Shown: positions 2,993-64,000, counted from the first letter of the stretch. The stretch: 64,000 nt of DNA from an uncultured Candidatus Saccharibacteria bacterium (GCA_964629235.1 CAZVQB010000002.1:4339-68338), one strand, 5' to 3'. Notes: generated by a model not told the origin, from the letters alone. Program-made: numbers and translations.

Positions 2993-3032
2993 TTATAACA
3001 AACAAAAAACTCCCTGTTAAGGAAGTTTCTTG

Positions 3033-8229: not shown

Positions 8230-8297
8230 TATTATCCCTTTTTAATATTCTTTCATCAAGATGATATGGAGAAAAAAGATATGTTAATATTATATAT

Positions 8298-8849: not shown

Positions 8850-8851
8850 TA

Positions 8852-9325: not shown

Positions 9326-9393
9326 ATTTTTATTGTTATTTTATAAGTATACACGAAAATTTCAATTTGTCAAGGTCTATATAAAGTGGATAA

Positions 9394-12777: not shown

Positions 12778-12802
12778 TTTTAATTTTATTAACTAGTAAA
12801 TA

Positions 12803-42563: not shown

Positions 42564-44222
42564 ATGATTAAGAAAATAATCAAACATCCATTAAGTTATA
42601 TACTACTTTTTGCTTTTCTAATTCGTATAGTAATGATCAAATATGGTTTACCATTCTGGTTATACAATGATGAACCACCTTTTGTACTTACAACATTGAA
42701 GATGTTTCAATTAAAGACGCTTTTACCAGTTTTACATGAAGCTGATTTCAAGCCATTCATGTATTACCCTCCTTATATTAGTTATTTATATATTCCCTTC
42801 TTTTTATTTTCTATAGCACTATCATGGATTGGCTTTGATGGAAACCTCAGTGAATTACAGAATGTGTTAGCTAGCGATCCTTCGATATTTTTCCTAACAG
42901 CGAGAGTAATAATGATTTTTATTAGTACATTAACCATTTATTTAATATACAAAATAACTCAATCATTAACACAAAGTAAAACTGCATCGCTTTATTCTGC
43001 AATCCTTTCTTCAACAAGTTTAATGTTTATAAGCCTTTCAATCACAGGCAAACACTGGGTACCAATACTTTTCTTTTATACACTTTGTCTTTTTATACTT
43101 ACACGTCCGAATTGGTCTATTAAAAAAAGATATATATTTTCAGTAATTACTGTAGGTATTGGAACTGGCATAAGTACAATAGTAATTCTTTTCTCTGTAG
43201 TGATTTTCCTTTGGTATATCACGTACGATAAAGTAAGTATAAAAGAAAGTTTGACCAGTCTATTTATGTACAAACTTGGTTTTATTGTGGCTATTTTATC
43301 TTTTATTCCAGTTCTTCTTTACCCTGCAAGTCTTGGTTTCGTACCAGACACAACATTACATGGTGGCAAGACTCTTTTGGGCTTTATAACTAGTCCTTTT
43401 GTTTTTCCATTCCCTTTCATCGCTACTGAACCAGTTTTAGTACTACTCAGTCTTATTGGTTTATATCTCGGTCTTAAAAAATATAAACCGTTCTATGTGA
43501 CGTCTATTATTTTTACAGTGTTTTATAGCATGATATTCTATGTATTTTTCAGATTTGAATACCGTTTCCTTTTACCTCTCGTATTATTCTTAACGATTGG
43601 ATCTGCAATAGGAATAAATGAAATCAGGAATAAATATCCAAACAAATATTCCAAAATTTTTATTTATTTGATTCTTCTAATTCCAATATTATTCTCTTTA
43701 AGACTTAGTTATCTTGGTTATACAAATGATTCAAGAATAAAAGCAAAAGAATGGTTGAATGCTAATGCAGAAGCTCATGACAAGGTTATTGTCTATGCGA
43801 ATCTCATGAGAATAGCAAATAATAAAAGTGGGATACTGGAACAACAGTTCATCGATGCGAAATCATTAAGAACAAATGATAAAAATATGTTGAGTATTCG
43901 AGATGGTTTGATAAAAGAAAAAACATTCCATGCTTTGAATCTATACACAGTTGAGAACGACAATTTCTACAAAATGATTGATGTTTATGTAAAAAAGAAT
44001 GGTTATAAATATCTGATATTTAGTAAAAGAGATTTCTTAGATAAACCTGAACAATTTGAGTATGTTAAAAATCTTACAAAAGATGCTAAACTTATAGTAA
44101 GTTATGGTAATAATGAAAGTAACTATTCCCTTTCAAAAACTGAGATCGGACCTAGTTTATTACCTTTCTTTAGAATAAATGAATTCGGACCGGAGATAGA
44201 AATATATAAATTGAATGACTAA
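42564..44222 (+). CDS. GT-C fold membrane glycosyltransferase (ArnT/PMT-like) with a C-terminal periplasmic domain
   Basis: Polytopic membrane protein. Loop 1 reads WLYNDEPPF (DE motif), and a ~200-aa soluble domain is C-terminal. Confidence 0.5.
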   Translation: MIKKIIKHPLSYILLFAFLIRIVMIKYGLPFWLYNDEPPFVLTTLKMFQLKTLLPVLHEADFKPFMYYPPYISYLYIPFFLFSIALSWIGFDGNLSELQNVLASDPSIFFLTARVIMIFISTLTIYLIYKITQSLTQSKTASLYSAILSSTSLMFISLSITGKHWVPILFFYTLCLFILTRPNWSIKKRYIFSVITVGIGTGISTIVILFSVVIFLWYITYDKVSIKESLTSLFMYKLGFIVAILSFIPVLLYPASLGFVPDTTLHGGKTLLGFITSPFVFPFPFIATEPVLVLLSLIGLYLGLKKYKPFYVTSIIFTVFYSMIFYVFFRFEYRFLLPLVLFLTIGSAIGINEIRNKYPNKYSKIFIYLILLIPILFSLRLSYLGYTNDSRIKAKEWLNANAEAHDKVIVYANLMRIANNKSGILEQQFIDAKSLRTNDKNMLSIRDGLIKEKTFHALNLYTVENDNFYKMIDVYVKKNGYKYLIFSKRDFLDKPEQFEYVKNLTKDAKLIVSYGNNESNYSLSKTEIGPSLLPFFRINEFGPEIEIYKLND

Positions 44223-49410: not shown

Positions 49411-50422
49411 CTGCTTGAACGCAATTACCTATTTTCCCAGAGAAAACTTGTATTAAACGTTTATTAAGTCTATTTACGACCGTAGGCCGTTCATCTGTTT
49501 TGTCTTTATTTGGCAATACAGTTCTTATCGTATACATTGAACCGATATGCTCAGCTTTTGCCATATCAGGGATTATCTCTGAAGCAGATTTCAAGAATTT
49601 CTTTATATTTGTTACTGGAGGATTCTTTATTAGACCTTTATTTAAAAGTGGAATTATTTTTTTGGGTATTTTTGGATAATATCCATTGTTTGTAGAATGT
49701 ATAGCATGCACTACATTCCCCATAAAATGTAGATCTGTTCTACCAAAAGGATCAATACAGAAAAACGGTCCATCCAATACTACAATACTTTTCTTTCTAT
49801 ATTCATCTGGCAATTTTATAAGGGGTTTTTCACAAACCTCAAATTGATATTCTTTATGATTTTTTTTATCTTCAATAACAGAATTTAGACTTGCATAAGT
49901 ACAATTTATAATATAATCATGATCGCTTGAGCCGTATGAAAAAATAGTATCAGTGTAAATTTTGACTTTATTTTTTATTAAACGCTCACGAACCGTTTCT
50001 TTAAGTTTCGGATAATCAATTATTGATTCTTTAACCTTAACTAATAGATCGATTTTATCTTTTTTATGATAAGGTAAATCTGCAATTTCAAAATCTAAAT
50101 CACATCTTTTGCAGAAATCCATAAACTGTTTACCTGTAACTTTACTCCCTTGTGATGCAATGCAATAGTAATGTTCATTATCAGTAACAACAGAGTCCTT
50201 ATACTCTTTCTTGAAAGAAATTTCAGCATCTCTAGAGGATATAGCTGTCTCATCACTTCTTGGATAATGATAGCCTATATGAAGACGAAATTGATTGGCA
50301 CCAGAAGCACCCATCATAATATCTGATTCTTTTTCAAATAATTCAACCTTAAAACCCTTTTCCGCGAGTTTAATTGCAGTAGTTGTACCGAATATTCCAG
50401 CTCCGACAACAGCGATTTTCAT
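49376..50422 (-). CDS. FAD-dependent oxidoreductase
   Basis: MKIAVVGAGIFGTTTAIKLAEKGFKVELFEKE dinucleotide-binding motif. Confidence 0.55.
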   Translation of the reverse strand: MKIAVVGAGIFGTTTAIKLAEKGFKVELFEKESDIMMGASGANQFRLHIGYHYPRSDETAISSRDAEISFKKEYKDSVVTDNEHYYCIASQGSKVTGKQFMDFCKRCDLDFEIADLPYHKKDKIDLLVKVKESIIDYPKLKETVRERLIKNKVKIYTDTIFSYGSSDHDYIINCTYASLNSVIEDKKNHKEYQFEVCEKPLIKLPDEYRKKSIVVLDGPFFCIDPFGRTDLHFMGNVVHAIHSTNNGYYPKIPKKIIPLLNKGLIKNPPVTNIKKFLKSASEIIPDMAKAEHIGSMYTIRTVLPNKDKTDERPTVVNRLNKRLIQVFSGKIGNCVQAAKDVLNLLKKK

Positions 50423-51510
50423 TTTATATTATCTAAAATTTTTGTAGCAATATCTTCACTTGTCCAATTCACAATAGTTGCACCAACATCCTTTGCAATA
50501 CCTACATCAGTCGAAATTATTTTGCAATTATTCGCTTCAGCCTCTTTAAAAGTAAGTCCATAACCTTCATACCATGAACAAACCAGAAAAACATCACAAC
50601 CTCGATAGTATGGAGTCAAATCAGTCTGCCACCCTTCAAATACAATATTTTTTGATATTTTTAAAATTTCAGATCTTCTTTTAAGATAATCTTGCATTGT
50701 TCCCGAACCAACTATCACGAGTCCTGTATCAGGCTTTTTAGCCAAAACAATCTTCATCGCATCTATAGCCATTGAGAAATTCTTTTCAGCTTCGATCCTT
50801 GAAATCATAAGAATAATGTTCTTAAATTGAGGAAATTTCTCTTTTAAAACAAAAGATGTTTTATCATTCTTTATATAATCAATATTTATATCTATAGGTT
50901 TTACTATTATATCTTCCGGATTAAATCCTCTTTTAACAAGTGAATCAGCTATTTTATTCGATACCACTCTTATTATATTTGCATGATTTAAAGTAAAACG
51001 AGATATAAAAAGTCTTATTCTATTTAAAATAGAATTTAAAATACCGATTCTTGCATCAATAAAGTACGGACTATACAAATCAGTATGAATTTGTACCAAC
51101 AATTCTGAATTCTTTCTTTTACTATTTAAACATTTACCCACTAAAGCAGTTTCAAAAGGGTCCTGACAAGTTATAAGTATTGGTATCTCTGGATTGATTT
51201 CATCAATAATCTTTACACCAATCTTTCTTGCATCACTTACATAATTCCATCTTACAAATGATTTTGTAGAATAGACTTTACAATTTTGAGCAATTTCCTT
51301 ATCTTCTATTTTTGAATCTGAAAAGACGATAATATGTAATTCTTTATACTGCTTTGAATATTCGAGCATTCTTTGTCTGACGACACTTTTCTCTACAAGT
51401 ATTTGTCTATCAGTTGAAACCATTATCACCGAATGATTGGAATAGTCTTTATATGTTGTTTTGTAGACATTATTTGATTCTTTCATAAATTGAAATGATT
51501 TCATTCCCAA
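50419..51510 (-). CDS. Glycosyltransferase family 4
   Basis: The C-terminal motif EGYGLTFKEAEANNCKIISTDVG is the GT4 E-x7-E. Confidence 0.7.
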   Translation of the reverse strand: MGMKSFQFMKESNNVYKTTYKDYSNHSVIMVSTDRQILVEKSVVRQRMLEYSKQYKELHIIVFSDSKIEDKEIAQNCKVYSTKSFVRWNYVSDARKIGVKIIDEINPEIPILITCQDPFETALVGKCLNSKRKNSELLVQIHTDLYSPYFIDARIGILNSILNRIRLFISRFTLNHANIIRVVSNKIADSLVKRGFNPEDIIVKPIDINIDYIKNDKTSFVLKEKFPQFKNIILMISRIEAEKNFSMAIDAMKIVLAKKPDTGLVIVGSGTMQDYLKRRSEILKISKNIVFEGWQTDLTPYYRGCDVFLVCSWYEGYGLTFKEAEANNCKIISTDVGIAKDVGATIVNWTSEDIATKILDNIK

Positions 51511-52492
51511 TATTCTCCCAACTATGAACCCAATTAAACTTTTTTACCTTATCAGCTTGCAGCTTCCTATTTTTTGGATCAGATATCCAGACAATCTTTT
51601 CAATTATGTCATTTTTATTCATTGGATCTATAAAAATTGCGCAATCTTTTACTCTATCTGATATACCATTCTCCTTTGTAAGAATAAAAGGGGTACCGAC
51701 TCTTATTGCATCAAAAATCATATTTGGACTTATGTCCCCAATAGAATTTAAAATAACAGCATAAGATCGTCTCATTCTCTCTTGGAAATTATCATAAACT
51801 GCTTTTGTGGTATCGAATTCAATATCATCAAAACCTTTTCCTCTGACTTTATCTTGAGCAATTTTGAATGCATCTCTAAGTGATTCCAAGTTTTTCCATT
51901 TCAAATCTCTCGTACCAGCAACAAAGACTCTATTCTCTGGCTCAATTTGTTCATCTCTTTCTCCACAAAAATTCTCAACAATCGTACTCTTCTTTGAATC
52001 AAGACTATATACTTTTTCAAAAATATCCTTTTGCCACTTCGTACTAAAGATTATTGCCGAAGCATTCCTCATAGAATCACCACCGACTTTAAATATCACT
52101 TTCTCTTTTTTAGAAAGTTTATTTAGTGATGTATTATAAAAATCTTTAAATAGAACCAAGTCGCCGGTTCTTTCTACATATGTTTCCCATAAGAAATCCC
52201 CTCCAGTTCTTATGATATATTTTTTTCTCATAAGCTTACATGCATACATTGTAGGTACTGCTGCACTCCATGTATCGAGTACAAGGATCAAATCTGCATT
52301 CCAACCTTTTCTAAAAATCTTTAGAAAAAATAGAAAATGTCTGAGAAATTTTGGGAATGCTCTCTCCCAACGATATGCAGCAACTTTTACATCATGACCC
52401 TGCTTTTTCCAGGTTTCATAAAGATTCCTAGCATATTGAGCTGAACCCCCAATATCTGGTGGGTATATACCTGATGAAATTAGAATTTTCAT
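51470..52492 (-). CDS. Glycosyltransferase, GT-B fold (GT4-like)
   Basis: MKILISSGIYPPDIGGSAQYARNL N-terminus; overlaps the downstream gene by 41 nt. Confidence 0.6.
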   Translation of the reverse strand: MKILISSGIYPPDIGGSAQYARNLYETWKKQGHDVKVAAYRWERAFPKFLRHFLFFLKIFRKGWNADLILVLDTWSAAVPTMYACKLMRKKYIIRTGGDFLWETYVERTGDLVLFKDFYNTSLNKLSKKEKVIFKVGGDSMRNASAIIFSTKWQKDIFEKVYSLDSKKSTIVENFCGERDEQIEPENRVFVAGTRDLKWKNLESLRDAFKIAQDKVRGKGFDDIEFDTTKAVYDNFQERMRRSYAVILNSIGDISPNMIFDAIRVGTPFILTKENGISDRVKDCAIFIDPMNKNDIIEKIVWISDPKNRKLQADKVKKFNWVHSWENIGNEIISIYERIK

Positions 52493-53679
52493 ATTACCTT
52501 TAAGAATACCTTATTCTTCATATCACTTGCAATAAGGTTCCACTGATACTTTCTTTCCACCATATCCAAAGCATTTTTAACTATTTTTTCTTTTAAACTT
52601 TTATCATTCAGAAGCATTTCAACTTTCCAGGCTATACTTTTTGGATTCTTTACTTCACAAAAAAGACCTGTTTCTCCATCTTTAAGAAAATCTACTATTC
52701 CTCCAACTGGTGTTGCTATTACAGGAATTCCTGCCGCCATTGCTTCTATATATGAATTACCAAAACCCTCAGACAAAGATGGTCTTATAAATATATCTGA
52801 TATGTGTAAATACTTTGGCATATCTTCATGTTTAACAAAACCCAAGAAAATTACTCTATTTTCGAGATTCAATTTCTTTACTCTTTGCTTTAACATTTCT
52901 TCTTCATGACCAGTACCCAAGACAAGGAATTTCACATTTTCTGGTAGATAAGTTAGAGAGTCGATAATATCTATAGTTGCATTTTTTTCAACCAATCTAC
53001 TTGTGGTTACCAAGAAAATGTCTTTATCTTTTTTATTTAAACTCTTTTTCAAATTACTCAATTCATTTTCACTTTTTATATTTGAAAATAAAGAAAAATT
53101 AACACCATTTGGTATGACAATTATCGGGGATTTCGTTCCCATATTTTTTGACCACATTGATAAGAAATTCGATATCACTTGAACCATATCTGCTTTTCCA
53201 AAAATTTTTGTAAAAAATGTCTTAAATATTCCTTGGCGAATTTTAAAATTATCACCCTCTTGTATTGAAAGAACAAATGGAATGTTTTTATTAAATATTT
53301 TAAATAAATAGCAAGTAAATCCTGCATAACTTGCCATCATTGACCATACTAAATCGTATTTATTTTTCCTATGTAGTTGTAATGCTTTTATAAGAGCGAA
53401 GATTGGAAAAATTAACTTAGATAATGGGAATATCTTTGAACTTTTTGTATTGCTACCAAACCAAGGTAAACCAACTCTATATACATTTATATTCCCTATT
53501 CTTTCAAACTTAGGAGCTTGTTTCCTCAAGGTTATCATATCAAATTCAATATCAGATGGAATGATTCGATCTGTAATTTCTTTAATTGCTATTTCTGCTC
53601 CACCTATGAATCTTGGATAGTAAACTAGAGAAAAAATGAGTATTTTCTTACTTTTTTGTTCATTTTTAGCTTGTTCCAT
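52489..53679 (-). CDS. Glycosyltransferase family 4
   Basis: EGFGNSYIEAMAAGIPVIATPVGG. Confidence 0.75.
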   Translation of the reverse strand: MEQAKNEQKSKKILIFSLVYYPRFIGGAEIAIKEITDRIIPSDIEFDMITLRKQAPKFERIGNINVYRVGLPWFGSNTKSSKIFPLSKLIFPIFALIKALQLHRKNKYDLVWSMMASYAGFTCYLFKIFNKNIPFVLSIQEGDNFKIRQGIFKTFFTKIFGKADMVQVISNFLSMWSKNMGTKSPIIVIPNGVNFSLFSNIKSENELSNLKKSLNKKDKDIFLVTTSRLVEKNATIDIIDSLTYLPENVKFLVLGTGHEEEMLKQRVKKLNLENRVIFLGFVKHEDMPKYLHISDIFIRPSLSEGFGNSYIEAMAAGIPVIATPVGGIVDFLKDGETGLFCEVKNPKSIAWKVEMLLNDKSLKEKIVKNALDMVERKYQWNLIASDMKNKVFLKVI

Positions 53680-53683
53680 TTTA

Positions 53684-55507
53684 TTACTTTACCTTAAGTA
53701 CATCACGAAGTACATCTTCAGGAACCTCTCTTTTTGTGTCACTTTTTTCCTGATGATTTGTATGACTTTTATGCACTTCATTTGGTTTATGGCTATTTTG
53801 AGTATTGGTTTGATTTATACTGTTTAAATCTTTTTTAATATGTTCATCTTTATGTGCCAAAACTGATGCCAAAGCACTCTTCAATTCATTTATCCTTTGT
53901 GGGTGTGCATCCTTATGATGATTGTGAACTTTAGGTATATTTGTTAGGGAATTTAAGGATACTGATTTCAATTTTGGAAGAGTGGGATGTGGCTTTATAT
54001 GATTTACAATCTTTTCTTCAACTTTTTCTTTTTTAATTTCTTCTTTATGAACTATTGGGTTTGGATGATTATCCACAATTTTCGTATTGTCTTGCAAATT
54101 TTGATTTATAGGTTGTGTAGCTAATTGAACTGTAGGTTTTGGAGTAGGTGTTAGTGTTGGATTAGGCGCTGGTGTTGAAGTCCCCGCTGGTAAAGGATTT
54201 TTAGGGGTAATAATAGGTTTTATTGGCGCTAACCAAAGTTCAATCTTCTTTTCTACATCCACTCTCTTACTTGCAAATTGTCTTCTTGATTCTTCAATCA
54301 CCGCAGTTGCATTAGACTTCTCTGGTAGAGGAATAGGTGGCAATGTAGTAGCAGAAAATGGTGACGAACTAATACCATCGATCATCAATTTCAAATATAT
54401 TTGAAATATTCCAAGATTCACAATATCTTCAGCAGTAAACTGTGGTGCAAATTCTTTTTCCAAGACTTCTGCATCATAAGCACCCACACGGAATACAATC
54501 ATAGTTCCAACGTTTCCGAAGACCGCAGCTCTAACCTCCTCTTCCATTTGCTCTATGTACTGATGAGCCATTGTAAGATTTAATTTATATTTTCTGGCTT
54601 CAGAAAGAATATCTGCGAAGGATTCATTTGCAAAAGACTGGAATTCATCTACGAATAGATAGAAGTTTGGAAGTTTTTTTATAACATTATCAGAAACATC
54701 TGCACGAGATAGCGCAGCTAGATATATCTTGGTTATTATCATTCCTCCCAAAAGATTGGCATTTGATTCCCCGATTCTTCCTTTTGACAGGTTCACTATG
54801 AAGATCTTACTCTTATCCATCATTTCACGAATATTAAAAGAGGATTTAGGTTGACCGATCATATTTCGTATCAAAGCATTTGCTGTAAACTGACCGATTT
54901 TATTTTGAATTGCAGGAACAGCTTCGGCAGCCATTCTTTCTGTATAGTTTGCAAACTCTTGTACCCAGAATGATTTTACGGATGGATCAGTAACACACGC
55001 CACTACTTGTTTTCTAAACTCTTTATCTGAAAGCATTCTATTTACTCCAAGTAGAGTTGCATCAGGATATTCAAGTAAAGCCAGAAGAGTATTTGTAAGG
55101 ATATACTCCATTCTCGCTGACCAAGCGTCTTGCCAGATTTTTTTAAATGTACTCATGAGCCCTGATACAACCAGATGTCTTTTATCATGATCAACATTTT
55201 CAAGTACATTAAATGATATAGGGTAATCCATATCAAAAGGTGCAAAGTACACAACATCCTGCCTTCTATTCTCAGGAATATACTCTAGTAGCAATTCTGC
55301 TGTCTTACCGTGAGGATCAAGGAAAGCCATACCTTCCCCATTTTTTATATCTTGCACAGCCATGTTTTCAAGTAAAGTGGATTTACCCATACCTGTCTTA
55401 CCTATTACATAGACATGCTTTGTTCTATCTTTGGCTTTAATACCAAAATTTACCTTTTTATTTCTGGCATCAGTTTGACCAAAATATGTAATCTTTTCTT
55501 CATTCAT
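53684..55507 (-). CDS. VirD4/TraG/TrwB-like P-loop ATPase (T4SS coupling-protein family), with no N-terminal TM helices and a PT-rich/His-rich C-terminal tail
   Basis: Walker A VIGKTGMGKST, a Walker B-like FVDEF, and a TraG-D_C-like central region. The C-terminus reads NPLPAGTSTPAPNPTLTPTPKPT followed by a H/K/N-rich tail. Confidence 0.55.
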   Translation of the reverse strand: MNEEKITYFGQTDARNKKVNFGIKAKDRTKHVYVIGKTGMGKSTLLENMAVQDIKNGEGMAFLDPHGKTAELLLEYIPENRRQDVVYFAPFDMDYPISFNVLENVDHDKRHLVVSGLMSTFKKIWQDAWSARMEYILTNTLLALLEYPDATLLGVNRMLSDKEFRKQVVACVTDPSVKSFWVQEFANYTERMAAEAVPAIQNKIGQFTANALIRNMIGQPKSSFNIREMMDKSKIFIVNLSKGRIGESNANLLGGMIITKIYLAALSRADVSDNVIKKLPNFYLFVDEFQSFANESFADILSEARKYKLNLTMAHQYIEQMEEEVRAAVFGNVGTMIVFRVGAYDAEVLEKEFAPQFTAEDIVNLGIFQIYLKLMIDGISSSPFSATTLPPIPLPEKSNATAVIEESRRQFASKRVDVEKKIELWLAPIKPIITPKNPLPAGTSTPAPNPTLTPTPKPTVQLATQPINQNLQDNTKIVDNHPNPIVHKEEIKKEKVEEKIVNHIKPHPTLPKLKSVSLNSLTNIPKVHNHHKDAHPQRINELKSALASVLAHKDEHIKKDLNSINQTNTQNSHKPNEVHKSHTNHQEKSDTKREVPEDVLRDVLKVK

Positions 55508-55559
55508 ATGGAGTTCTATATGTATAATATTTTACCATGGTTTTTTATATTAAGTATAG

Positions 55560-57125
55560 TTAATTATGTTTGTATATTGTAAATAAATTATCACCATATA
55601 CCCTCTTCAAATTTGAGTATTTTAACAGATCATTGTGATTATCTTGTATAATATATTGAATATCGTATTTTTCTAGGTTTTTTAATATCTTTTCTTTTAT
55701 ATTTGAACTCATAGCATCATAAATTCTGTCTGGTTTTGATATCCATTGACCAGCATATAATGTCCAAAAAACATAATTTCTTGAATAAAGTGGAATGTAC
55801 TGTGAAAGAGATTCCGGGGCAATAAATACGGAGTCTTTGGAGTTAGATTTTATCCATTCAAGTATGGGGATGTATCTTTGAATGTAAATAGTATAGTCTA
55901 GAGAATTTTTATATGAATTAATTTGGATCAAAATCGAATTAACAATACAAAGAATAGATAGTAAGAATATTATTGCAATACTGGTTTTTGATTTTGTATT
56001 ATCTCTTAAAAATTCTTTAATAAAATAAATTACAACAATAACCAAAATCGGACTGAATACATACATTTCAAAATGACTATATTGCATTACAAGTCCAGTT
56101 AGAACATGCTCATTTCTAGTTAAAAAACATGCAGATATTAGGCCTGAAATAAATATAAATTCATCACTGATGATTTTACTTCTTTTATAAACCAGAAAGA
56201 GCAGAATGAAGCAGACTACAAAAATTGATACACCAAATAGACTGACATCCGGAACATGACTCATCCTTAGGTATTCATGTGGAATAGTTAAATAGTATTC
56301 ATGTGACATCAGATTAACAATTTGATAAAAGACTGGAATAGCCAATAACATACCTAATGCGAAACTAACAACAAGACCCTTAAGTTTGTCGGATTCCTTT
56401 CTAAAAAAATAAATCCCGATAAGAACTAAATTTAGGACAGTTAAATACGCATAGGTAAAAAAATAAATATAGAATGATATACAGAAGAAAATACCGAGGA
56501 TGATATACCATAGTCTAGTATTCTTTTTAATTGCCAAAAATAAAATATTCAGATACAAAAGAAAATATAATGAGCTAAATTGTGGATTAACCGGTCTGGA
56601 GAATATCAAAAACTGATTTTCCTCTACTCTAAACCTAAATAAATTGATGAGATCGTGAATATTTAGTAAATCCTCAAAATTTAGAAGATTATACCCCAAA
56701 ACGATTAATAGGGATCCTAAAATAGACAGAGGCGAATCTTTAGCGATTCTATTGATAATTAAATAAGATAAAATAAAAATAATGATTGGCAATACGAATT
56801 CATATACAATTTTTAAATCTAAAATATTTATATTCATCAAGATGCCTGGCATTGCTAGTATCATTGATGAAAGAGATGAATCGAAGTGTGGAAAATTATA
56901 GCCATACTCTTTTATAAAAGGATTACAATTAAACGTACAACCACTGTATACTCCGTGAATTTTATTTAGGTACAATGACTCTGCATCGGTATTCATTATT
57001 GGTATACCACTAAAACTAGCACTATTTATAAAGAGAATATTTGGAATTACATAAATAACACCACACATAATAGCAGCAACAAGTACTAAGAGTAATTTCT
57101 TTGAAATCATAAATAAATTATACAT
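55560..57125 (-). CDS. Polytopic membrane protein (about 12 TM) with a C-terminal soluble domain, directly downstream of the pilin gene
   Basis: The 521-aa ORF has no recognisable catalytic motif. It occupies the position held by the pilin O-oligosaccharyltransferase gene in some type IV pilin loci. Confidence 0.4.
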   Translation of the reverse strand: MYNLFMISKKLLLVLVAAIMCGVIYVIPNILFINSASFSGIPIMNTDAESLYLNKIHGVYSGCTFNCNPFIKEYGYNFPHFDSSLSSMILAMPGILMNINILDLKIVYEFVLPIIIFILSYLIINRIAKDSPLSILGSLLIVLGYNLLNFEDLLNIHDLINLFRFRVEENQFLIFSRPVNPQFSSLYFLLYLNILFLAIKKNTRLWYIILGIFFCISFYIYFFTYAYLTVLNLVLIGIYFFRKESDKLKGLVVSFALGMLLAIPVFYQIVNLMSHEYYLTIPHEYLRMSHVPDVSLFGVSIFVVCFILLFLVYKRSKIISDEFIFISGLISACFLTRNEHVLTGLVMQYSHFEMYVFSPILVIVVIYFIKEFLRDNTKSKTSIAIIFLLSILCIVNSILIQINSYKNSLDYTIYIQRYIPILEWIKSNSKDSVFIAPESLSQYIPLYSRNYVFWTLYAGQWISKPDRIYDAMSSNIKEKILKNLEKYDIQYIIQDNHNDLLKYSNLKRVYGDNLFTIYKHN

Positions 57126-57152
57126 TAAAAAACACCCATAGGGTGTTTTTTA
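57126..57152. terminator. Bidirectional rho-independent terminator downstream of the pilin gene
   Basis: AAAAAACACCC-ATA-GGGTGTTTTTT. Confidence 0.6.
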
Positions 57153-57179
57153 ATGTATACAAAATACTAATAAATAGTA

Positions 57180-57659
57180 TTAAGACGCAGGACAAGCATA
57201 AGTTGAAGCGGCAAGAGCTGTTGTAACTTGTCTTGAAGCTCCTGTACTATCTACACACCAAGCTACTATTGCTCCAGACGCTGAAGCCTTAAGTGGAACG
57301 ATTGCTGCCCAAGCTGTTGATGAATCGTGGCATTGTGATGTGTTATATGTTGAAGCAGTACCATCAGCTAAAGTTGGTGCAGCAACTCCATAAGCAGCAT
57401 TCGCAGCAATAACACTATCACCAATAACATTTGCTCCTGTTAGTGCACATACACCATCGTATGATGATGTTCCATTATCATAGAACAATTCAGCCTCTGC
57501 TCTAGCGCCAGATAGGTTTGACTTTACAGCAGTATCAGCTCCCTTTGAACGTGCTGTGTTTAGTGAAGCCAAAACAACTGATGACAATATACCGATAATA
57601 GCGATAACTACAAGCAACTCAATCAATGTAAAACCTTTTTGCAAATATGATTTCTTCAT
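57180..57659 (-). CDS. pilA: Type IV pilin (prepilin, class III signal peptide)
   Basis: MKKSYLQKG/FTLIELLVVIAIIGIL, the prepilin peptidase site G/F with Glu+5. The C-terminal domain has two Cys pairs and is Ser/Thr/Ala-rich. Confidence 0.85.
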   Translation of the reverse strand: MKKSYLQKGFTLIELLVVIAIIGILSSVVLASLNTARSKGADTAVKSNLSGARAEAELFYDNGTSSYDGVCALTGANVIGDSVIAANAAYGVAAPTLADGTASTYNTSQCHDSSTAWAAIVPLKASASGAIVAWCVDSTGASRQVTTALAASTYACPAS

Positions 57660-57766
57660 AACGAAATAATTAACTTAATAAATAAACTAATAATTAACTT
57701 ATGCCGTAAGTATATCAAACCTCAAAAAAATAGTGCAATATCGTTTGGGGATAAGTATAGGACAAC

Positions 57767-58975
57767 TTATTGCGAACTAGCCACGTTGTAAATAGGTATA
57801 AGGACTGAAGCGAGCAAAGTAGCAACACCAAGTCCAAGTAGAACGATCATAGCTGGTTCTATAAGATCTACTAGAGCATCAACAGCAGTTACAACTTCTC
57901 TTGAATAAAATTTAGCCAAAGTTTTAAGTATTGCTCCAAGTTCTCCTGATTCTTCACCAACTCTCATCATTTGAATCATAATTCCAGGAATTTCTCCATT
58001 ACCAGATAGAGCTTCTGACACTGTCTTTCCTGCTTTTACTGAATCTACCGCATCAGAGATTATTTTTTTATATATACTATTGTTAATAACTGAAGAAGTA
58101 AGCTCCAATGATCTAATCATAGGAATTCCAGACATAAGCATAGTATTCATATTGTCAGAAAGTCTAGCCCAGTATAGTTTTCTAAAAAGATTACTTAAAT
58201 AAGGGATATTGAGCTTAAATTGATCGAAGACAATTGCTCCACTAGGTGTTCTTACATATTTTACAACTATAAACCCTACGATCATGACAACAGCGAGCAT
58301 AATAAAACCATTTGCAACCATAAAATTACTAATTCCCAAAACTATTTTTGTATAAATTGGTATATCCTGACCAGACTCAGTCAAAATTGCACTAATCTTT
58401 GGTATAACCATAGTAAACATGAGTATCATCACAGTTATAAAAGTCATCATAACGAAAGCTGGATATATAAGTGCGCTCTTTGCTTTTGATACAAGTTCAT
58501 ATGTTCTATCTAGATAATCAGCTAGATATGCAAAAGTTTCATTGAGTTTACCAGATTCTTCACCTGCTTTTACCATACTCACGTAAAACTCTGAAAATAC
58601 CTTTGGATGCTTTTCAAGTGCACCAGATATCTGACTTCCTGCTTGTAGATCATCAGCTATTTGAATCAATTTTGCACCCAAAACTTTATTTTCACTTTCT
58701 GCACCTAAAAGTCTAAATATTCTCAAAGCAGAAACTTGTGCTTCAAAAAGTGTTGCCAACTGCCTTGAAAGAATAACTATATCTTTGTTTGAAACCCTAT
58801 CAAGAAAAGATAGATTCATTGAAAGTAATCCTGTCTTTTTATCTGCTTCGTTTATAGAAGTAATCACCAAACCTCTTCTCTGTAGAGATGCAATAGCGAT
58901 ATCAACATTTGCAGCATCTATAGAGCCTTTTTGTGGTGTTCCAGCTTGATCTACTGATTGATAATTAAAAAGCAT
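57767..58975 (-). CDS. pilC: Type IV pilus platform protein PilC (GspF family)
   Basis: The 402-aa ORF has two T2SSF repeats and 3 TM helices. Confidence 0.85.
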   Translation of the reverse strand: MLFNYQSVDQAGTPQKGSIDAANVDIAIASLQRRGLVITSINEADKKTGLLSMNLSFLDRVSNKDIVILSRQLATLFEAQVSALRIFRLLGAESENKVLGAKLIQIADDLQAGSQISGALEKHPKVFSEFYVSMVKAGEESGKLNETFAYLADYLDRTYELVSKAKSALIYPAFVMMTFITVMILMFTMVIPKISAILTESGQDIPIYTKIVLGISNFMVANGFIMLAVVMIVGFIVVKYVRTPSGAIVFDQFKLNIPYLSNLFRKLYWARLSDNMNTMLMSGIPMIRSLELTSSVINNSIYKKIISDAVDSVKAGKTVSEALSGNGEIPGIMIQMMRVGEESGELGAILKTLAKFYSREVVTAVDALVDLIEPAMIVLLGLGVATLLASVLIPIYNVASSQ

Positions 58976-58985
58976 TGTAAAAATA

Positions 58986-60044
58986 TTATATCATTCTTTC
59001 TAAATTTTTTGGATTAACTGAATTTATATATGCATTCTCAGGACTAATCTCTCCTCTTCTTACGAGTTCGGCTAGTGAACGATTCATATCAATCATACCT
59101 TCTGCAGAACTTGTCTCTATAACAGTATTTATTTCATGTATTCTTTTTTCTCGAATAAGATTTGCTACAGCGGAATTGTTTATCAAAAGTTCATATGCAG
59201 GTATTAGACCGCCTGATATTCTAGGAATCAATCTTTGAGAGAAAATACCAGTCATACTTCCAGCAAGTTGTACTCTTATCTGATCCTGTTGCGAAGCTGG
59301 GAAAGAGTCGATGATACGGTTAATTGTCTGTGATGCTGTATTTGTATGTAGAGTTGAGAATACCAAGTGACCTGTTTCAGCTGCTGTTACTGCTGTAGAT
59401 ATAGTCTCTGGATCTCTCATTTCACCTACCAAAGCAACATCTATATCCTCTCGAAACATCGCAATCAAAGCATTCTTGAAGTCTGGTGTATCTATTCTAA
59501 CCTCTCTTTGATCAATAATGGATTTCTTCGATTCATAAATATACTCGATAGGATCTTCGATTGTCATGATATGTTCATTTCTAGTTTGATTTATTATTTC
59601 AATCAAAGAAGCCAAAGTCGTACTCTTTCCTTGCCCAATCGGACCTACACATAAAAAGAATCCTTGTTGTTTTCTAGTAAAAGATTCAAGGATAGGTGGG
59701 AGATTCAACTCTGTAAGAGTTTTGATTTGTTTTGGAATAAGTCTAAGTGCAATAGATATAAGTCCTTGCCTGTAGTATGCATTTCCACGAAATCTTGCAT
59801 TTGTTAGACTGTAAGAAAAGTCTACATCTTTATCTTTAGCAAAGAGTTCTTTATTTTCATCAGAAAGAAAAGTATTTATATAACCTTTCATATCTGCTGC
59901 TGTAATGACAGATTTCTTAGCTAGAGGTATAAGACTTCCAGAGACTCGAATAAGCGGATTTCTACCTTCAGAAAGATGAAGGTCTGATGCGCCTTCATTT
60001 ATCACTGTTGTAACAAGTTCTTCTATATCTCTTTTATAATCCAT
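58986..60044 (-). CDS. pilT: Type IV pilus retraction ATPase PilT
   Basis: Walker A GPIGQGKST, DPIEY, the Asp box, and AIRNLIRE-like ANLIREKRIHEI. Confidence 0.9.
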   Translation of the reverse strand: MDYKRDIEELVTTVINEGASDLHLSEGRNPLIRVSGSLIPLAKKSVITAADMKGYINTFLSDENKELFAKDKDVDFSYSLTNARFRGNAYYRQGLISIALRLIPKQIKTLTELNLPPILESFTRKQQGFFLCVGPIGQGKSTTLASLIEIINQTRNEHIMTIEDPIEYIYESKKSIIDQREVRIDTPDFKNALIAMFREDIDVALVGEMRDPETISTAVTAAETGHLVFSTLHTNTASQTINRIIDSFPASQQDQIRVQLAGSMTGIFSQRLIPRISGGLIPAYELLINNSAVANLIREKRIHEINTVIETSSAEGMIDMNRSLAELVRRGEISPENAYINSVNPKNLERMI

Positions 60045-60064
60045 ATGATTTAATTATGAAAAAA

Positions 60065-60451
60065 CTATTTTTTAATATGTGAACAAATCTTCTCTACCTC
60101 AGACATAACTTCAGAAGGAATTGTTGTTGCTTTTATTATATAACCATCTACATTCAAAGCTTTAGCTCTAGCGATATCATCAGGAAGGCCTTGATTTGTT
60201 AACATAATTATAACTGATTTTTTTACCAAACCCTCTTTTCTTAAATTTGAAAGTAATTCGATACCATCCATTCCTGGCATTACAATATCTAAAAGTAAAA
60301 TATCTGGTTCCAATCCATCTCTAATCAACTTCAATGCCTCTTCCGTATCTGCTGATGTATGAACTATAAAATCATTCTTTGAAAATTTCAGAGAATACAT
60401 ATCTAACAGAAACTTATCATCATCTACAAAAAGTATTGAGCGTGGTTTCAT
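60065..60451 (-). CDS. CheY-like single-domain response regulator embedded in the pilus operon
   Basis: FVDDD, ILLLDIVMPGMDG, and the T/K positions (MLTNQ, IIKA). Confidence 0.85.
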   Translation of the reverse strand: MKPRSILFVDDDKFLLDMYSLKFSKNDFIVHTSADTEEALKLIRDGLEPDILLLDIVMPGMDGIELLSNLRKEGLVKKSVIIMLTNQGLPDDIARAKALNVDGYIIKATTIPSEVMSEVEKICSHIKK

Positions 60452-60473
60452 GTATATATTATATCATAATAAA

Positions 60474-62189
60474 TTAGAGCTTATTCACTTCTTCAAATGG
60501 TATTTTCTTTTCAAATGCCTTTAGCATTGCATCTTCCTTCATAGTAATCATACCTTTTTGCCTTAACAATCTACTTATTTCTAATTCAGTAGGACTCTTC
60601 AGAATCACATTTTCTATTTCTTTATCCATTTTGAATATTTCAAATATCGCCATACGTCCTCTAGTACCCTTTGGACAGTCTGGAGTCGGCTCTATTCCAT
60701 ATACTGTATCTGAAAAAGGTATTTCTTTTTTGAATTGTTCTGGTAAATCAGAAAATTGTTTATCAATCATCATTTTTATACTTCCATCTACCGGTATTGG
60801 TTTTCCTGCTCCAGGTGGGAATGTAGAAACAAGTCTTTGAGCAATAGCTAGAATAAGGGTAGGGGCAATAAGATACGGATCTACTCCCATGTCTATAAGA
60901 CGCGGAATAACACCAGCAGAGTTGTTGGTGTGTAGAGTTGAGAATACCAAGTGACCAGTAAGCGCAGCTTGCACAGCAAGCTGCGCAGTCTCTTTGTCTC
61001 GGATCTCACCCACCATGATTATATCTGGATCTTGTCTAAGTGTTGTTCTAAGTCCAGATGCGAAAGTATAACCAATCTCGGGATGAACTTGTGATTGACT
61101 CACACCATCCATATTGTATTCAATCGGATCTTCAAGAGAAAGAACATTCATAGTCTCTCGATCGACTTCATTTAACATAGAATATAGAGTTGTTGATTTT
61201 CCGGAACCTGTTGGACCAGTAATGAGAATAAGTCCGTATGGCCTTGTAATTGCATCTTTTATCAAAGCGAGATTCTTTGGTGTTAAACTCATATCATCAA
61301 TCTTTTTTACTCCTTTTTCTTGATCAAGGATACGCATCACAACTTTTTCTCCATAATATGCTGGGAATGTTGAAACTCGGAAGTCGATTTTTCTTCCATC
61401 TATACGAGCAGAGAATCTACCGTCTTGTGGTTTTCTCTTTTCATCAAGTTTCATATTACACAAAACCTTAATACGAGCCACAACCGCATTGTGTACTTGA
61501 GGTGGAAGAACCAAACTTGTGTTTAAAGTACCATCCACACGGAATCTAACACGAACTTTATCTCTCATATGTTCTATATGAACGTCAGAGGCATTGCCCT
61601 CTGTAGCATATCGGACGATAGTAGCCACAATCTTTATAACAGGAGCATCTTCTATGATAACTGCATCATTTTTCTTTTCAGTTTTACTTTGGGCAATATC
61701 AATAGTTGCTGCTTTATCTACAGATAGTACAGATTCTAGTTCAGTAAGAGCCTTTGACACTTCTCCACCGATACCTTTGTATGAATCGATTACCTTTTGA
61801 AAATCATCAATAGTAATCAAAAAAACTTTATAAGGAATATTTTTTTTAGAAGCAATAAAATTCAAAGCGTCTCTAGCTTCAATATTGTCCGGATCGACAA
61901 TTCCAACTTCTAGAGTGCTATCGTGTAACCCAATTGGTACGAATTTATAATGTTTTGCTGATTCTTCAGGAATATAATCTAGTGCTTCAAAAGGCACAAG
62001 AGTATCACCTAGGGCTTTTACTGGAATATTCAGGAATTCACCCCTTGCTGTAAGAATATCTTCAGGTCTGATGCCTTTTTCAATTAGTATTTTATCCAAA
62101 GCCTCACCTTTTGCAGCGATTTTCTTTATTTCTGCAACATCATCTTTGGTTATAAGATTTTTATTTAGTAAAATATCAACTATACTCAT
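60474..62189 (-). CDS. pilB: Type IV pilus assembly ATPase PilB (GspE family) with N-terminal GSPII_E_N domain
   Basis: Walker A GPTGSGKST, PIEY, the Asp box and His box (TGHLVFSTLHTN). Confidence 0.9.
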   Translation of the reverse strand: MSIVDILLNKNLITKDDVAEIKKIAAKGEALDKILIEKGIRPEDILTARGEFLNIPVKALGDTLVPFEALDYIPEESAKHYKFVPIGLHDSTLEVGIVDPDNIEARDALNFIASKKNIPYKVFLITIDDFQKVIDSYKGIGGEVSKALTELESVLSVDKAATIDIAQSKTEKKNDAVIIEDAPVIKIVATIVRYATEGNASDVHIEHMRDKVRVRFRVDGTLNTSLVLPPQVHNAVVARIKVLCNMKLDEKRKPQDGRFSARIDGRKIDFRVSTFPAYYGEKVVMRILDQEKGVKKIDDMSLTPKNLALIKDAITRPYGLILITGPTGSGKSTTLYSMLNEVDRETMNVLSLEDPIEYNMDGVSQSQVHPEIGYTFASGLRTTLRQDPDIIMVGEIRDKETAQLAVQAALTGHLVFSTLHTNNSAGVIPRLIDMGVDPYLIAPTLILAIAQRLVSTFPPGAGKPIPVDGSIKMMIDKQFSDLPEQFKKEIPFSDTVYGIEPTPDCPKGTRGRMAIFEIFKMDKEIENVILKSPTELEISRLLRQKGMITMKEDAMLKAFEKKIPFEEVNKL

Positions 62190-62194
62190 AAATT

Positions 62195-62563
62195 TTAATT
62201 CGATGAACCTTTAGGTAGCTTTATCGAGGTAGACGATGGAACTGAAGCACCTCCAGTTGGTGCAAACGGGTTTGGTCGACCGACATTCTGTTCTGGAATA
62301 GTTATCGTATAATCAACCAAAGAATTATATACTGGAGATTTAAAAATCTCACCATCAATCTTAAGTGAACTTATCGTGTTTAACAGTATCAATACCCTAC
62401 TAGCAGCGGCTTGAGCACCAACTGATGCAACGGTACTAGTAGTAGTCAATGAAGAACCAGTGTCAGTTGGTGTTCCTTTATAATAAAAATAAATTCCAAG
62501 TGACACTACTACTATTAGTATCAAAGCGATGAATGTTCCTTTTGATGGTGATTGTTGTTGCAT
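62195..62563 (-). CDS. Small single-TM protein in the pilus operon (PilP-like position; function unknown)
   Basis: The 122-aa ORF has an N-terminal TM helix and a Ser/Thr-rich region. Confidence 0.3.
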   Translation of the reverse strand: MQQQSPSKGTFIALILIVVVSLGIYFYYKGTPTDTGSSLTTTSTVASVGAQAAASRVLILLNTISSLKIDGEIFKSPVYNSLVDYTITIPEQNVGRPNPFAPTGGASVPSSTSIKLPKGSSN

Positions 62564-62567
62564 AATA

Positions 62568-63173
62568 TTATTGTTTTAACCAAAATGTTTTAACTTCTAC
62601 ATTGTAATCATATACACCAGTGTCGTTTGATTTTACTGTAATTTTTGAAATCTCAATAATTCTTAGACTTGCCTCTATATCTTTTAGGAAGTTTAGGAAA
62701 TTTTGATAATTACTTGATACATCAAAACTAAGAGTAACCGTACTATATGTGCTTTGTGTAGAACCATCACCAGAAACTTGATCAATACCAGGATTAGCAA
62801 CTGGTTCGGACGCATCCTTTGGAGTAGTAGTCTTTACATTTTTCATTACAATACCGTGTCTTGCTGCAACTCCACTTATATCTATTATAAGACGAACATT
62901 ATCGACATTATCTGGTAGAATTTTTTCTAATCTCTCTTGGTCATCTATGCCGATTTTATTGTAATTATCTTTTACAGCATCTCTAACCTTTATCAATTTT
63001 TCAGAATTTTCAAGTGCTTGTTCATACTGAGCATTTACTTGTCTTATAGCTTGTAATTCATCAATTTTCGCACGAGTAAAGGTAAAGTATATTCCAACCG
63101 CCAAGACTATTAGTATTAATGGTGTAACATTCTTATTCATATTATTGTGTTGGATTATTTGGCGCCGAATCAC
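62568..63173 (-). CDS. pilO: PilO-like pilus assembly protein (TM + coiled coil); true start probably the internal ATG (MNKNVTPL)
   Basis: Topology and coiled-coil segment match PilO. The position between pilN-like and pilB fits. Confidence 0.45.
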   Translation of the reverse strand: MIRRQIIQHNNMNKNVTPLILIVLAVGIYFTFTRAKIDELQAIRQVNAQYEQALENSEKLIKVRDAVKDNYNKIGIDDQERLEKILPDNVDNVRLIIDISGVAARHGIVMKNVKTTTPKDASEPVANPGIDQVSGDGSTQSTYSTVTLSFDVSSNYQNFLNFLKDIEASLRIIEISKITVKSNDTGVYDYNVEVKTFWLKQ

Positions 63174-63783
63174 CAGTTAATATTTTCTCATAATAAATGT
63201 CACTTGTATCAAAGCTTGCTGTCAAAGTAAAACCGACATTTCCTTTATCATCAAGTACCAAATCACCCAAAACTGGATTTTTTACAACCTTATTTTTTCC
63301 ATATTTTATCGATTGACCCAAAACATCTGATTGCCAAGCAATTGAACTAAAACTATTACCCGTTCCCTTCACAGTGATACGAGCTGAATCTCCAGAAACA
63401 ACAGGCGAAGTGAATTCAAAATTATCAAAACGTATTCCTTCAGTCGTAAGATTATTTATAATGTCAAAAACCTCAGAAACAGCTATATGATTTTTTAGAA
63501 GTTGATTTGCTAAATCAATTTTTGTATTGGCTTTCTTTAATTTTTCGATTAAAGCAATATCAAATCTTTTTTCTGCTTTTTCCAATTCAACTTGATAAGA
63601 AGCTTGTTGTTTAGTTAGTACATCTTTCCAAAAAAAAGTAAAACCCGCACCAGCTAGTGATAATATAAAAATCATAACAGATATAAACATAAAGACACTA
63701 GCACCTCCACTATGCTTTATTGTTTTCTGATCCATCAAAATTGGTTTTTTGGGAATGAACGATGTTTGGAATTTAGTGTCCAT
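63142..63783 (-). CDS. pilN: PilN-like pilus assembly protein (TM + coiled coil)
   Basis: The 213-aa ORF has an N-terminal TM and a coiled coil. It lies directly downstream of a pilM-like fragment. Confidence 0.45.
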   Translation of the reverse strand: MDTKFQTSFIPKKPILMDQKTIKHSGGASVFMFISVMIFILSLAGAGFTFFWKDVLTKQQASYQVELEKAEKRFDIALIEKLKKANTKIDLANQLLKNHIAVSEVFDIINNLTTEGIRFDNFEFTSPVVSGDSARITVKGTGNSFSSIAWQSDVLGQSIKYGKNKVVKNPVLGDLVLDDKGNVGFTLTASFDTSDIYYEKILTGDSAPNNPTQ

Positions 63784-63801
63784 TAATATAATTATAGTTG
63801 A

Positions 63802-64000
63802 TTACTCTATTTCAGACAATCGACGTAATGCACACCCGATTGCAACTGCGAACTCAGGTCCAGCCTTTAGGAATTGTTCACTCAAGAATGCCGGAGTTTC
63901 CAATTTTCCAAATGGATTTGCATAAACAATTTCAGTCTGGAAACTTATTTTTGCCAAATCAGTAAAACCACGAAGCAATACTCCACCTCCAGTAAGTACA
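63802..64000 (-). CDS. pilM: PilM-like actin-fold pilus assembly ATPase, C-terminal 65 aa (partial; the gene continues beyond the window end)
   Basis: The reverse-strand translation reads LTGGGVLLRGFTDLAKISFQTEIVYANPFGKLETPAFLSEQFLKAGPEFAVAIGCALRRLSEIE followed by a stop. The LTGGG...L.G motif and the C-terminus resemble PilM/FtsA-family ends. Confidence 0.6.
   Translation of the reverse strand, partial: VLTGGGVLLRGFTDLAKISFQTEIVYANPFGKLETPAFLSEQFLKAGPEFAVAIGCALRRLSEIE

Follow-up and report, generated by a model that had tools for sequence, protein, structure and literature searches.

The closest described relatives of the gene that concerns us here are the coupling proteins of conjugation. 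The gene encodes a 607-residue ATPase and lies in a 64,000-nucleotide stretch from an uncultured Candidatus Saccharibacteria bacterium (GCA_964629235.1, CAZVQB010000002.1:4339-68338), which was analysed whole and is called the window below. Type IV coupling proteins (T4CPs) of the VirD4/TrwB/TraD type combine a P-loop domain with an all-alpha insert. Their C-terminal tails dock partners, as in the pairing of TraD with TraM and of DotL with its adaptors. In pIP501 the coupling protein comes in two parts, TraI and TraJ, and the soluble ATPase depends on a small membrane protein for its recruitment.

The existence of orphan T4CP homologues in Patescibacteria is already in the literature. The parts of Quinonero-Coronel et al. 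(2025, PMC12102498) used here count 5,713 VirD4-like (T4CP) homologues in 2,918 Patescibacteria genomes, only 148 of them near virB4, and consider exaptation of such homologues possible; the supplementary table gives one or two orphan t4cp1 matches per genome. The window ATPase resembles these proteins in being VirD4-like, chromosomal and away from virB4. We show that it is a strongly conserved orphan of a Patescibacteria-wide coupling-protein family, encoded on the chromosome, and that its adjacency to a type IV pilus (T4P) locus is a recent, local rearrangement. To those parts of the paper our analysis adds the fused, split and orphan architectures of the family, the domain DUF8128, a conserved gene order with DUF4015 and GT4 glycosyltransferase genes, and a C-terminal motif.

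The ATPase and its relatives

The gene and its parts are as follows.

53684..55507, minus strand: ATPase, 607 residues, VirD4/TrwB-like, with no transmembrane (TM) anchor
54224..55507, minus strand: ATPase core, residues 1-428, a VirD4/TrwB-type P-loop domain with an inserted all-alpha domain
53732..54223, minus strand: disordered basic linker, residues 429-592, with a predicted local distance difference test score (pLDDT) below 50 except in helix 536-551
within 53732..54223, minus strand: semi-conserved helix NELKSALASVL, residues 540-550, a motif across homologues
53684..53731, minus strand: C-terminal peptide REVPEDVLRDVLKVK and stop codon, the motif at the C-terminus of 116 of 120 close homologues

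Protein families were called with Pfam gathering scores and NCBIfam cutoffs. The ATPase exceeds the gathering scores of TrwB_AAD_bind (38.2 bits against 20.5), T4SS-DNA_transf (36 against 20.1), DUF87 (28.9 against 23.2) and TraG-D_C (25.4 against 22), which bears out the coupling-protein-like P-loop ATPase described in an earlier note on this DNA. Against the NCBIfam T4CP models it scores 40-45 bits, where the cutoffs stand at 250-650. The protein has the VirD4/TrwB fold and appears to lie outside the curated T4CP families. The anchor was rightly reported as missing: the maximum 19-residue hydropathy is 1.34, Walker A begins at residue 36 and the predicted structure has no N-terminal TM helix.

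The profile searches also raise a reading of the ATPase as part of an anti-phage defence system, either mad8-like (MADS) or HerA-based. PADLOC mad8 matches at 54 bits (E 3e-15), above the ATPase's own Pfam T4CP scores, HerA models match weakly, and the adjacent glycosyltransferase GT396 has a weak 'GT4-conflict' match in Pfam. However, no neighbouring gene matches any defence component in PADLOC, the 'GT4-conflict' score lies far below the generic GT4 score of the same protein, and the ATPase gene is core, syntenic and highly conserved, unlike defence islands. The mad8 and HerA matches are at the level of the superfamily and come with no partner genes; we rejected this reading, which we hold to be extremely improbable.

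An AlphaFold2 model gives the core a pLDDT mostly above 90 and leaves the tail disordered. Helices 107-231 form the all-alpha domain, inserted between strands 85-88 and 235-239 as in TrwB. TrwB of R388 (PDB 1e9r/1gki) is the best full-length Foldseek match of the core, over about 420 columns at a target-normalised TM-score of about 0.65; Cag-beta and DotL rank next, and HerA has a similar E-value with a lower TM-score. The likeness to VirD4/TrwB/TraD coupling proteins takes in the P-loop domain and its insert, the conserved Walker A and B motifs and superposition over the full length, and it extends to a C-terminal extension that is likely for partner docking. Unlike these proteins, the window ATPase lacks the N-terminal anchor, has no relaxase or type IV secretion system (T4SS) genes nearby and is about 15% identical to TrwB. 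It also differs in being a chromosomal core gene that is 85-90% identical across many species and co-operonic with glycosyltransferases.

Walker A (GKTGMGKS, G36-S43) and Walker B (D287-E288) are invariant in an 81-sequence alignment that reaches down to 39% identity, as are many further residues of the core. Among the matches listed, thousands of Patescibacteria proteins are 85-90% identical to the 428-residue core. An exhaustive search returned 22,314 cluster representatives, and 6,032 of these (50%-identity clusters) have E<1e-30.

The tail is built differently. Its 179 residues are rich in Pro, Thr, Lys, His and Asn, with a pI of 9.6, so that the Pro/Thr linker and His/Lys-rich end of the earlier description are both present. 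In 120 close homologues the tail is between 50 and 257 residues long and of varying composition, and it is basic throughout (median pI 9.7). The helix motif NELKxALASVL recurs in 70 of them. The terminus follows the consensus KE[VI][PS]EDVL[RK]x[VI]LKV in 116, the window version being KEVPEDVLRDVLKV, while other subfamilies end in LKPGExIxF or FxEPII. The window-type motif was found nowhere else among the ORFs of the window or of 80 related loci. A variable linker with a conserved end peptide reads as the signature of a docking motif, and the peptide may tether the anchorless ATPase to a partner.

Where does such a family come from? Relatives of the ATPase in the candidate phyla radiation (CPR), whose architectures were read from loci L081-L083 and L087-L166, take two forms with cores 45-60% identical to the window protein. 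Fused forms, at about 50% identity, carry 300-460 extra N-terminal residues that comprise a TM helix and PF26449/DUF8128 (precomputed annotation); the fused DUF8128 is present in proteins P0191 and P0271-P0389. In CPR2, WS5 and a third lineage the fused gene follows topA and a sigma-region-4/HARE-HTH gene, with dprA in two of the three, and the fused genes converge on the end of the dcw division cluster. Split forms, the second subfamily of short form, share about 60% identity with the window protein in a metagenome sample and have other C-terminal motifs. A separate TM+DUF8128 gene lies directly upstream of the split ATPase in 45 of 58 loci, preceded by the sigma4/HARE-HTH gene in 35 of 49.

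The window type is a third form, the orphan. We considered DUF8128 as a separate gene near it and rejected this: the profile has 0 matches in the window and in the 80 related loci with their 10-kb flanks, and tblastn and blastp were equally empty. Likewise dprA, topA, sigma4/HARE-HTH, FtsQ and MurG genes are all missing from the vicinity of the window-type short form. DUF8128 itself found no structural relatives when its profile was run against the PDB, and a literature search returned no mention of it.

A homologue on a Bacillus plasmid ties these forms to conjugation. Downstream of the gene for this 904-residue protein (WP_229762801.1; Bacillus sp. BC1-43 plasmid NZ_CP086062.1) come a replication-relaxation gene, genes for conjugal transfer and an ATPase gene of VirB4 size. 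The DUF8128 profile recognises the N-terminal part of the protein (E 4e-23), which is also 25-27% identical to the CPR long forms; the protein's core is homologous to that of the window protein, with 28.6% identity and the same all-alpha insertion. DUF8128 joined to a VirD4-like ATPase is thus a real architecture among Gram-positive coupling proteins, and the sequence comparisons show that the window family descends from conjugative coupling proteins of this type. The window ATPase differs from its DUF8128 relatives in lacking the domain and in having DUF4015 and GT4 neighbours, where theirs are relaxase and T4SS genes, or a sigma4/HARE-HTH gene with dprA and topA. The pIP501 TraI/TraJ pair offers a second comparison. 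It resembles the window type as an anchorless coupling ATPase that needs a separate membrane partner, and the split pairs of DUF8128 and ATPase genes resemble it too; the window type has no adjacent membrane partner, and its family is chromosomal rather than plasmid-borne. A Gram-positive origin of the ATPase family fits the derivation of the Patescibacteria T4SS from the monoderm MPF-FATA class that is reported in the parts of PMC12102498 used here.

The very strong conservation of the ATPase is typical of core DNA motors, which brings up an FtsK/HerA-like housekeeping motor in segregation or repair, unrelated to secretion. The protein belongs to the same superfamily, HerA is among its top fold matches, and fused relatives are found where the dcw cluster ends, next to topA and dprA. 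Nevertheless, it is VirD4/TrwB, not FtsK/HerA, that gives the best full-length fold match and shares the all-alpha domain, and no NurA-like or XerCD-related neighbour was found. In addition, the table of PMC12102498 lists separate t4cp2 (TcpA/FtsK-like) matches in many genomes. We judge the housekeeping motor improbable.

We rejected a mobile-element origin. Among the matches listed, the best on a plasmid is 41% identical (Sulfitobacter), an orphan amid transposases on a non-mobilizable plasmid; other plasmid matches reach at most 36% and phage matches at most 29%. The Sulfitobacter gene is the closest non-CPR relative, 41% identical over 90% of the core, and it lies at 99994-101181 of the alphaproteobacterial Sulfitobacter mediterraneus plasmid NZ_CP081110.1. 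It encodes 395 residues with no tail and no anchor, among recombinase and transposase genes; horizontal acquisition of this gene is possible. As a separate observation, one metagenome contig (L093) carries two ATPase paralogues 6 kb apart (7992-9977 and 16265-17257), the second of them 36% identical to the window protein and placed after alaS- and mnmA-like genes.

Gene neighbourhood of the ATPase

The ATPase gene belongs to an unbroken minus-strand gene run across 50-64 kb of the window. Its flanking features are these.

50419..51510, minus strand: GT363, a GT4 glycosyltransferase (Glycos_transf_1, 86.9 bits), conserved as fourth in the block
51470..52492, minus strand: GT340, GT4-like (Glyco_transf_4, 31 bits), conserved as third in the block
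52489..53679, minus strand: GT396, a GT4 glycosyltransferase (Glycos_transf_1, 143.6 bits, and Glyco_transf_4)
55560..57125, minus strand: polytopic membrane protein of 521 residues with a predicted glycosyltransferase C (GT-C) fold (AlphaFold2 model and Foldseek)
57119..57159, minus strand: terminator-like hairpin with a 19-bp stem and a T-rich tail, 3' of the pilin gene

The T4P locus lies upstream, and the earlier note proposed that the ATPase may work with the pilus, for example in DNA uptake or substrate delivery, and not in conjugation. Some evidence favours such an accessory motor, one that would move DNA or another substrate, for example in competence. In the window and 7 related species the ATPase is found on the pilin's strand, 1.6 kb downstream of it, and a locus of the second subfamily (L131) has PilB and PilC 3 kb from the ATPase. 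The ATPase has the fold of coupling proteins, which handle DNA, and a basic tail. Moreover, natural competence and the importance of T4P are documented in Patescibacteria (PMC10633639).

The comparison of related loci points the other way. We compared 160 loci in all, among them 80 from different species with 73-99% core identity and 10-kb flanks, drawn from Taylor-, Zambryski- and Nomurabacteria and other Paceibacteria. Of the 53 loci whose upstream sequence spans 5 kb or more, only 7 have PilB, PilT or PilC on that side of the ATPase. A neighbour-joining tree built from the cores groups these seven with the window in one shallow subclade, where loci of the usual arrangement are interleaved with them. 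The usual order is a DUF4015 putative glycosyl hydrolase, the ATPase and three GT4 glycosyltransferases: DUF4015 lies upstream of the ATPase within 1.7 kb in 51 of about 62 loci, and a GT396 homologue lies downstream within 3 kb in 59 of 69, its frame abutting or overlapping that of the ATPase in 40. Many loci further have MraY-like and MurC genes near the ATPase. In the window, 4 nt separate the ATPase stop from the GT396 start.

The pilus locus, for its part, does without the ATPase. Two complete T4P loci of relatives (L085 and L086) run PilM-N-O-x-PilB-REC-PilT-PilC-pilin-521aa-minor pilins-PilD-minor pilins, where REC is a receiver-domain protein and x the unnamed small gene, and no such ATPase follows them. 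In a third (L084), the module formed by pilus and 521-residue gene is separated from the ATPase-GT4 block by genes for a GT2 enzyme and a PemK toxin and by an ORF of no known family. Within the window, the terminator-like hairpin follows the pilin gene, a promoter-like site (a consensus match) lies in the 52-nt gap ahead of the ATPase, and the ATPase operon, starting from 55507, appears to be a transcription unit separate from the pilus locus. We read the region as the junction of two independent modules, the pilus locus and an ATPase-GT4 unit, because the 521-residue gene tracks the pilin and the ATPase tracks DUF4015 and the GT4 genes. The proposal of joint work with the pilus did not survive this comparison, although conservation beside T4P operons was the check that the note itself had suggested, and an accessory pilus motor now seems very improbable.

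Several minor observations concern these boundaries. In L084 the PemK-family toxin gene and a 166-residue ORF occupy 12395-13404, at the module junction, which fits a rearrangement-prone spot. Many of the loci L002-L074 have a DUF4015-ATPase spacer of about 350-640 nt that is absent from the window. Its GC content is above that of the locus (0.44-0.58 against 0.28 in L026), and its only ORFs are short, poorly conserved and rich in Arg and Gly, with a 'DGER' motif in some of them. Within the spacer, only a hairpin 30-90 nt ahead of the ATPase start codon stands out from poor nucleotide conservation. In a search for a structured RNA there, Rfam gave nothing at gathering scores and matches at chance level in a permissive scan, and ARAGORN found no tRNA or tmRNA; the spacer may encode a small, fast-evolving protein or an RNA, and we set it aside because the window lacks it. 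A small upstream membrane protein as tether for the ATPase was rejected. The one candidate cluster (c7) occurs in 9 loci only, and most ORFs of the gap are non-conserved, Arg/Gly-rich and free of TM segments.

Possible partners and cargo of the ATPase

What might the ATPase do beside the GT4 genes? The account that we favour, and regard as fairly probable, takes the region as two independent modules, with an orphan TrwB-type ATPase that is encoded in one operon with the GT4 genes and would act as a tail-docked ring on DNA or nucleoprotein. By homology with TrwB, the protein would form an ATP-driven hexameric ring. The flexible basic tail, ending in KEVPEDVLRDVLKV, would recruit it to a partner or to the membrane and so stand in for the lost membrane anchor. 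The cargo would most probably be DNA or nucleoprotein, because every characterised relative of the fold handles DNA and because sister paralogues sit with dprA, topA and an HTH gene. It might serve the T4SS-like machine encoded on the chromosome, take part in the uptake of DNA, or belong to some process of the envelope or its glycans.

A number of points weigh against this account. Terminator and promoter were called by consensus matching alone. The neighbour-joining tree, built on so conserved a protein, is weakly resolved, and the number of rearrangement events is uncertain. In very compact genomes, conserved gene order is no proof of a functional link to the GT4 genes. The hexamer, the DNA substrate and the tethering by the tail are extrapolated from homologues. 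For the source genome, the survey for DUF8128, VirB4 and a second paralogue covered the 64-kb window. Finally, the t4cp homologue of S. epibionticum is non-essential by transposon sequencing, according to the parts of PMC12102498 used here. A core role for the ATPase is therefore only a possibility, and the S. epibionticum homologue may or may not belong to the same subfamily.

The same S. epibionticum data bear on another possibility, that the ATPase supplies in trans the coupling protein missing from the chromosomal Patescibacteria T4SS (VirB4/TrsD/VirB3/VirB6), a cluster encoded elsewhere, and recruits substrates to it. The protein is homologous to a genuine Gram-positive conjugative coupling protein, and the Patescibacteria T4SS derives from the same class according to the parts of PMC12102498 used here; in its table most genomes have VirB4 together with one or two orphan t4cp1 genes. 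In S. epibionticum no recognisable coupling protein belongs to the T4SS cluster (PMC10633639). Against this, the parts of PMC12102498 used here place just 148 of the 5,713 homologues near virB4 and report t4cp as dispensable in S. epibionticum, where the T4SS genes are essential. The window type, moreover, has neither TM anchor nor DUF8128, and no T4SS gene was found in the 64-kb window or within 10 kb of the ATPase in the 80 loci, where the neighbours that could be identified are DUF4015, GT4, cell-wall or pilus genes. Partner-docking C-terminal tails are typical of coupling proteins (TraD-TraM, DotL) and speak again for this role in trans, which we consider doubtful.

The neighbouring genes suggest instead that the ATPase was exapted for a role in the cell envelope together with DUF4015 and the three GT4 enzymes, where it could, for example, power or organise glycoconjugate assembly or export. 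The order DUF4015-ATPase-GT4 x3 persists at 73-99% core identity in the proportions given above, the frames abut or overlap in 40 loci and stand 4 nt apart in the window, MraY-like and MurC genes are near in many loci, and the block opens a 28-kb glycan island in the window. On the other side, no ATPase of FtsK/HerA/VirD4 type is known to take part in making or exporting glycans; tight operons of unrelated genes are maintained in compact genomes; and the GT4 link is missing from the second subfamily. An envelope role of this kind strikes us as rather unlikely. We would call unlikely, too, a more specific proposal, in which a coupling protein freed from conjugation and from DUF8128 was rewired through its new C-terminal docking peptide to a Paceibacteria-specific envelope process involving DUF4015 and the three GT4 enzymes. 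If it were true, this would be the first VirD4-type motor to serve the assembly or export of surface glycoconjugates, or the delivery of cargo through the envelope of an episymbiont.

A large part of bacterial diversity belongs to the Patescibacteria, which live attached to the cells of hosts, and for most of the conserved machinery of their envelope no function has been assigned. The ATPase family is among their most conserved proteins, comparable to PilT, with one to two copies per genome. It is also open to experiment: descent from DUF8128 proteins is traceable, fused, split and orphan forms have different neighbours, and the conserved tail peptide can be used as bait, with the DUF8128 protein, the T4SS and the GT4 enzymes as explicit partner hypotheses. 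The comparison of loci, in addition, corrects an attractive but wrong inference from the adjacency of pilus and ATPase, and yields a candidate pilin glycosyltransferase.

The pilus locus and the rest of the window

The order pilM(partial)-pilN-pilO-small gene-pilB-CheY-pilT-pilC-pilA that had been read from the sequence was recovered in full, with all genes in place and on the minus strand.

63802..64000, minus strand: PilM C-terminus, 65 residues; the gene is truncated by the window end and its frame translation contains LTGGGVLLRGFTDLAKISFQTEIVYANPFG
63142..63783, minus strand: PilN-position protein, 213 residues, one TM segment (position and topology only)
62568..63173, minus strand: PilO (PF04350, 34 bits against a gathering score of 22)
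62195..62563, minus strand: small single-TM, Ser/Thr-rich protein of 122 residues (position in the pilus operon)
60474..62189, minus strand: PilB extension ATPase (T2SSE 380 bits, MshEN 51 bits)
60065..60451, minus strand: REC-only (CheY-like) response regulator, 128 residues (Response_reg 70.8 bits)
58986..60044, minus strand: PilT retraction ATPase (TIGR01420 pilT_fam 412 bits, cutoff 319)
57767..58975, minus strand: PilC platform protein (T2SSF twice, 167 bits; GspF/PilC models 276-333 bits)
57180..57659, minus strand: major prepilin (N_methyl / TIGR02532)

The locus is an ordinary one, of the type IVa kind known from Patescibacteria. The PilM fragment is 100% identical to the end of a 404-residue ORF in related locus L001, and its orthologues in L084-86 have PilM_2/FtsA matches in Pfam. 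Neither the PilN-position protein nor the 122-residue TM protein between PilO and PilB has any Pfam or NCBIfam match; the former keeps its place in 10 of 10 related T4P loci and the latter its PilO/PilB interval in all related pilus loci. PilB scores 476 bits against TIGR02538, short of the cutoff of 676. A motif scan found a single prepilin ORF in the whole window. PilD and minor pilins are absent from the window and must be located elsewhere in the source genome; in L085 and L086 both come after the GT-C gene.

CheY-like single-domain regulators of type IV pili are known from the Chp system, namely PilG and PilH. The window regulator resembles them as a REC-only protein encoded amid pilus genes, with a complete phospho-acceptor pocket as read from the sequence (D10-D12, D55, T85, K107). 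It differs in lying between pilB and pilT, in a window that has no Che or Chp genes and no kinase. Neither the annotated ORFs of the entire window nor the T4P loci L084-86 yielded a histidine kinase or a partner of Che type. The gene stands between PilB and PilT in 10 of 10 related T4P loci and is typical of this pilus operon in the lineage. A literature search on response regulators in CPR pilus operons returned nothing, and the Saccharibacteria pilus paper is silent on one.

Pilin glycosyltransferases encoded next to pilA are known from P. aeruginosa, where TfpW is of GT-C type and TfpO/PilO of Wzy_C type. The 521-residue protein of the window is, like TfpW, a polytopic protein of predicted GT-C type encoded immediately after the major pilin; unlike the P. 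aeruginosa enzymes, it has no detectable sequence similarity to any curated family and gave no Pfam or NCBIfam match. Its AlphaFold2 model (pLDDT 86.5, predicted TM-score 0.87) matches STT3, PglB, AglB, AftA, DPY19 and ArnT in Foldseek at E 4e-7 to 6e-4 and TM-scores of 0.50-0.57, which identifies it at the level of the model as a GT-C glycosyltransferase. The family is rare (18 sequences), and D47 and E49 in the first external loop are invariant; these two residues would be catalytic. The gene directly follows the major pilin in L001 and L084-86, so the protein goes with the pilin and not with the ATPase. It is probably a good candidate for a pilin or surface glycosyltransferase, the pilin being a candidate acceptor by virtue of the conserved position alone. 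We rejected the C-terminal Ser of the window pilin as a glycosylation site in the style of P. aeruginosa 1244, since this Ser is not conserved in relatives. The hairpin at 57119-57159 covers the first ATG of the ORF, and because of this overlap the real start is possibly the second Met near 57110.

As the earlier note had stated, the window has no relaxase, VirB4, VirB11-type conjugation ATPase or integrase; we also found no com gene or tRNA in its 64 kb. The ATPase lies outside any recognisable conjugative or integrative element, in what is ordinary core chromosome: ribonucleotide reductase, GroES/EL, enolase, RNase J and RNase P RNA are all encoded here. An OmpR-type response regulator (REC and Trans_reg_C) at 24527-25195 on the plus strand has no adjacent histidine kinase. 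It is followed by a surface-glycan island of about 28 kb (about 25182-53679), with the ATPase-GT4 block at its edge.

3031-3352, minus strand: RNase P RNA, bacterial class A (Rfam RF00010, 116 bits, full length)
25182-27428, in the glycan island: fusion of Wzy_C (O-antigen-ligase-like) and TPR repeats
28426-30306, in the glycan island: fusion of NeuB, SAF and cytidylyltransferase

Three large ORFs of the island (37225-38619, 41172-42560 and 42564-44222) have no family match. The island also encodes a UDP-GlcNAc 2-epimerase, two TagF-like glycerophosphotransferases, several methyltransferases (one of TylF type), GT9, GT2 and GT4 enzymes, a Polysacc_synt flippase and GtrA.

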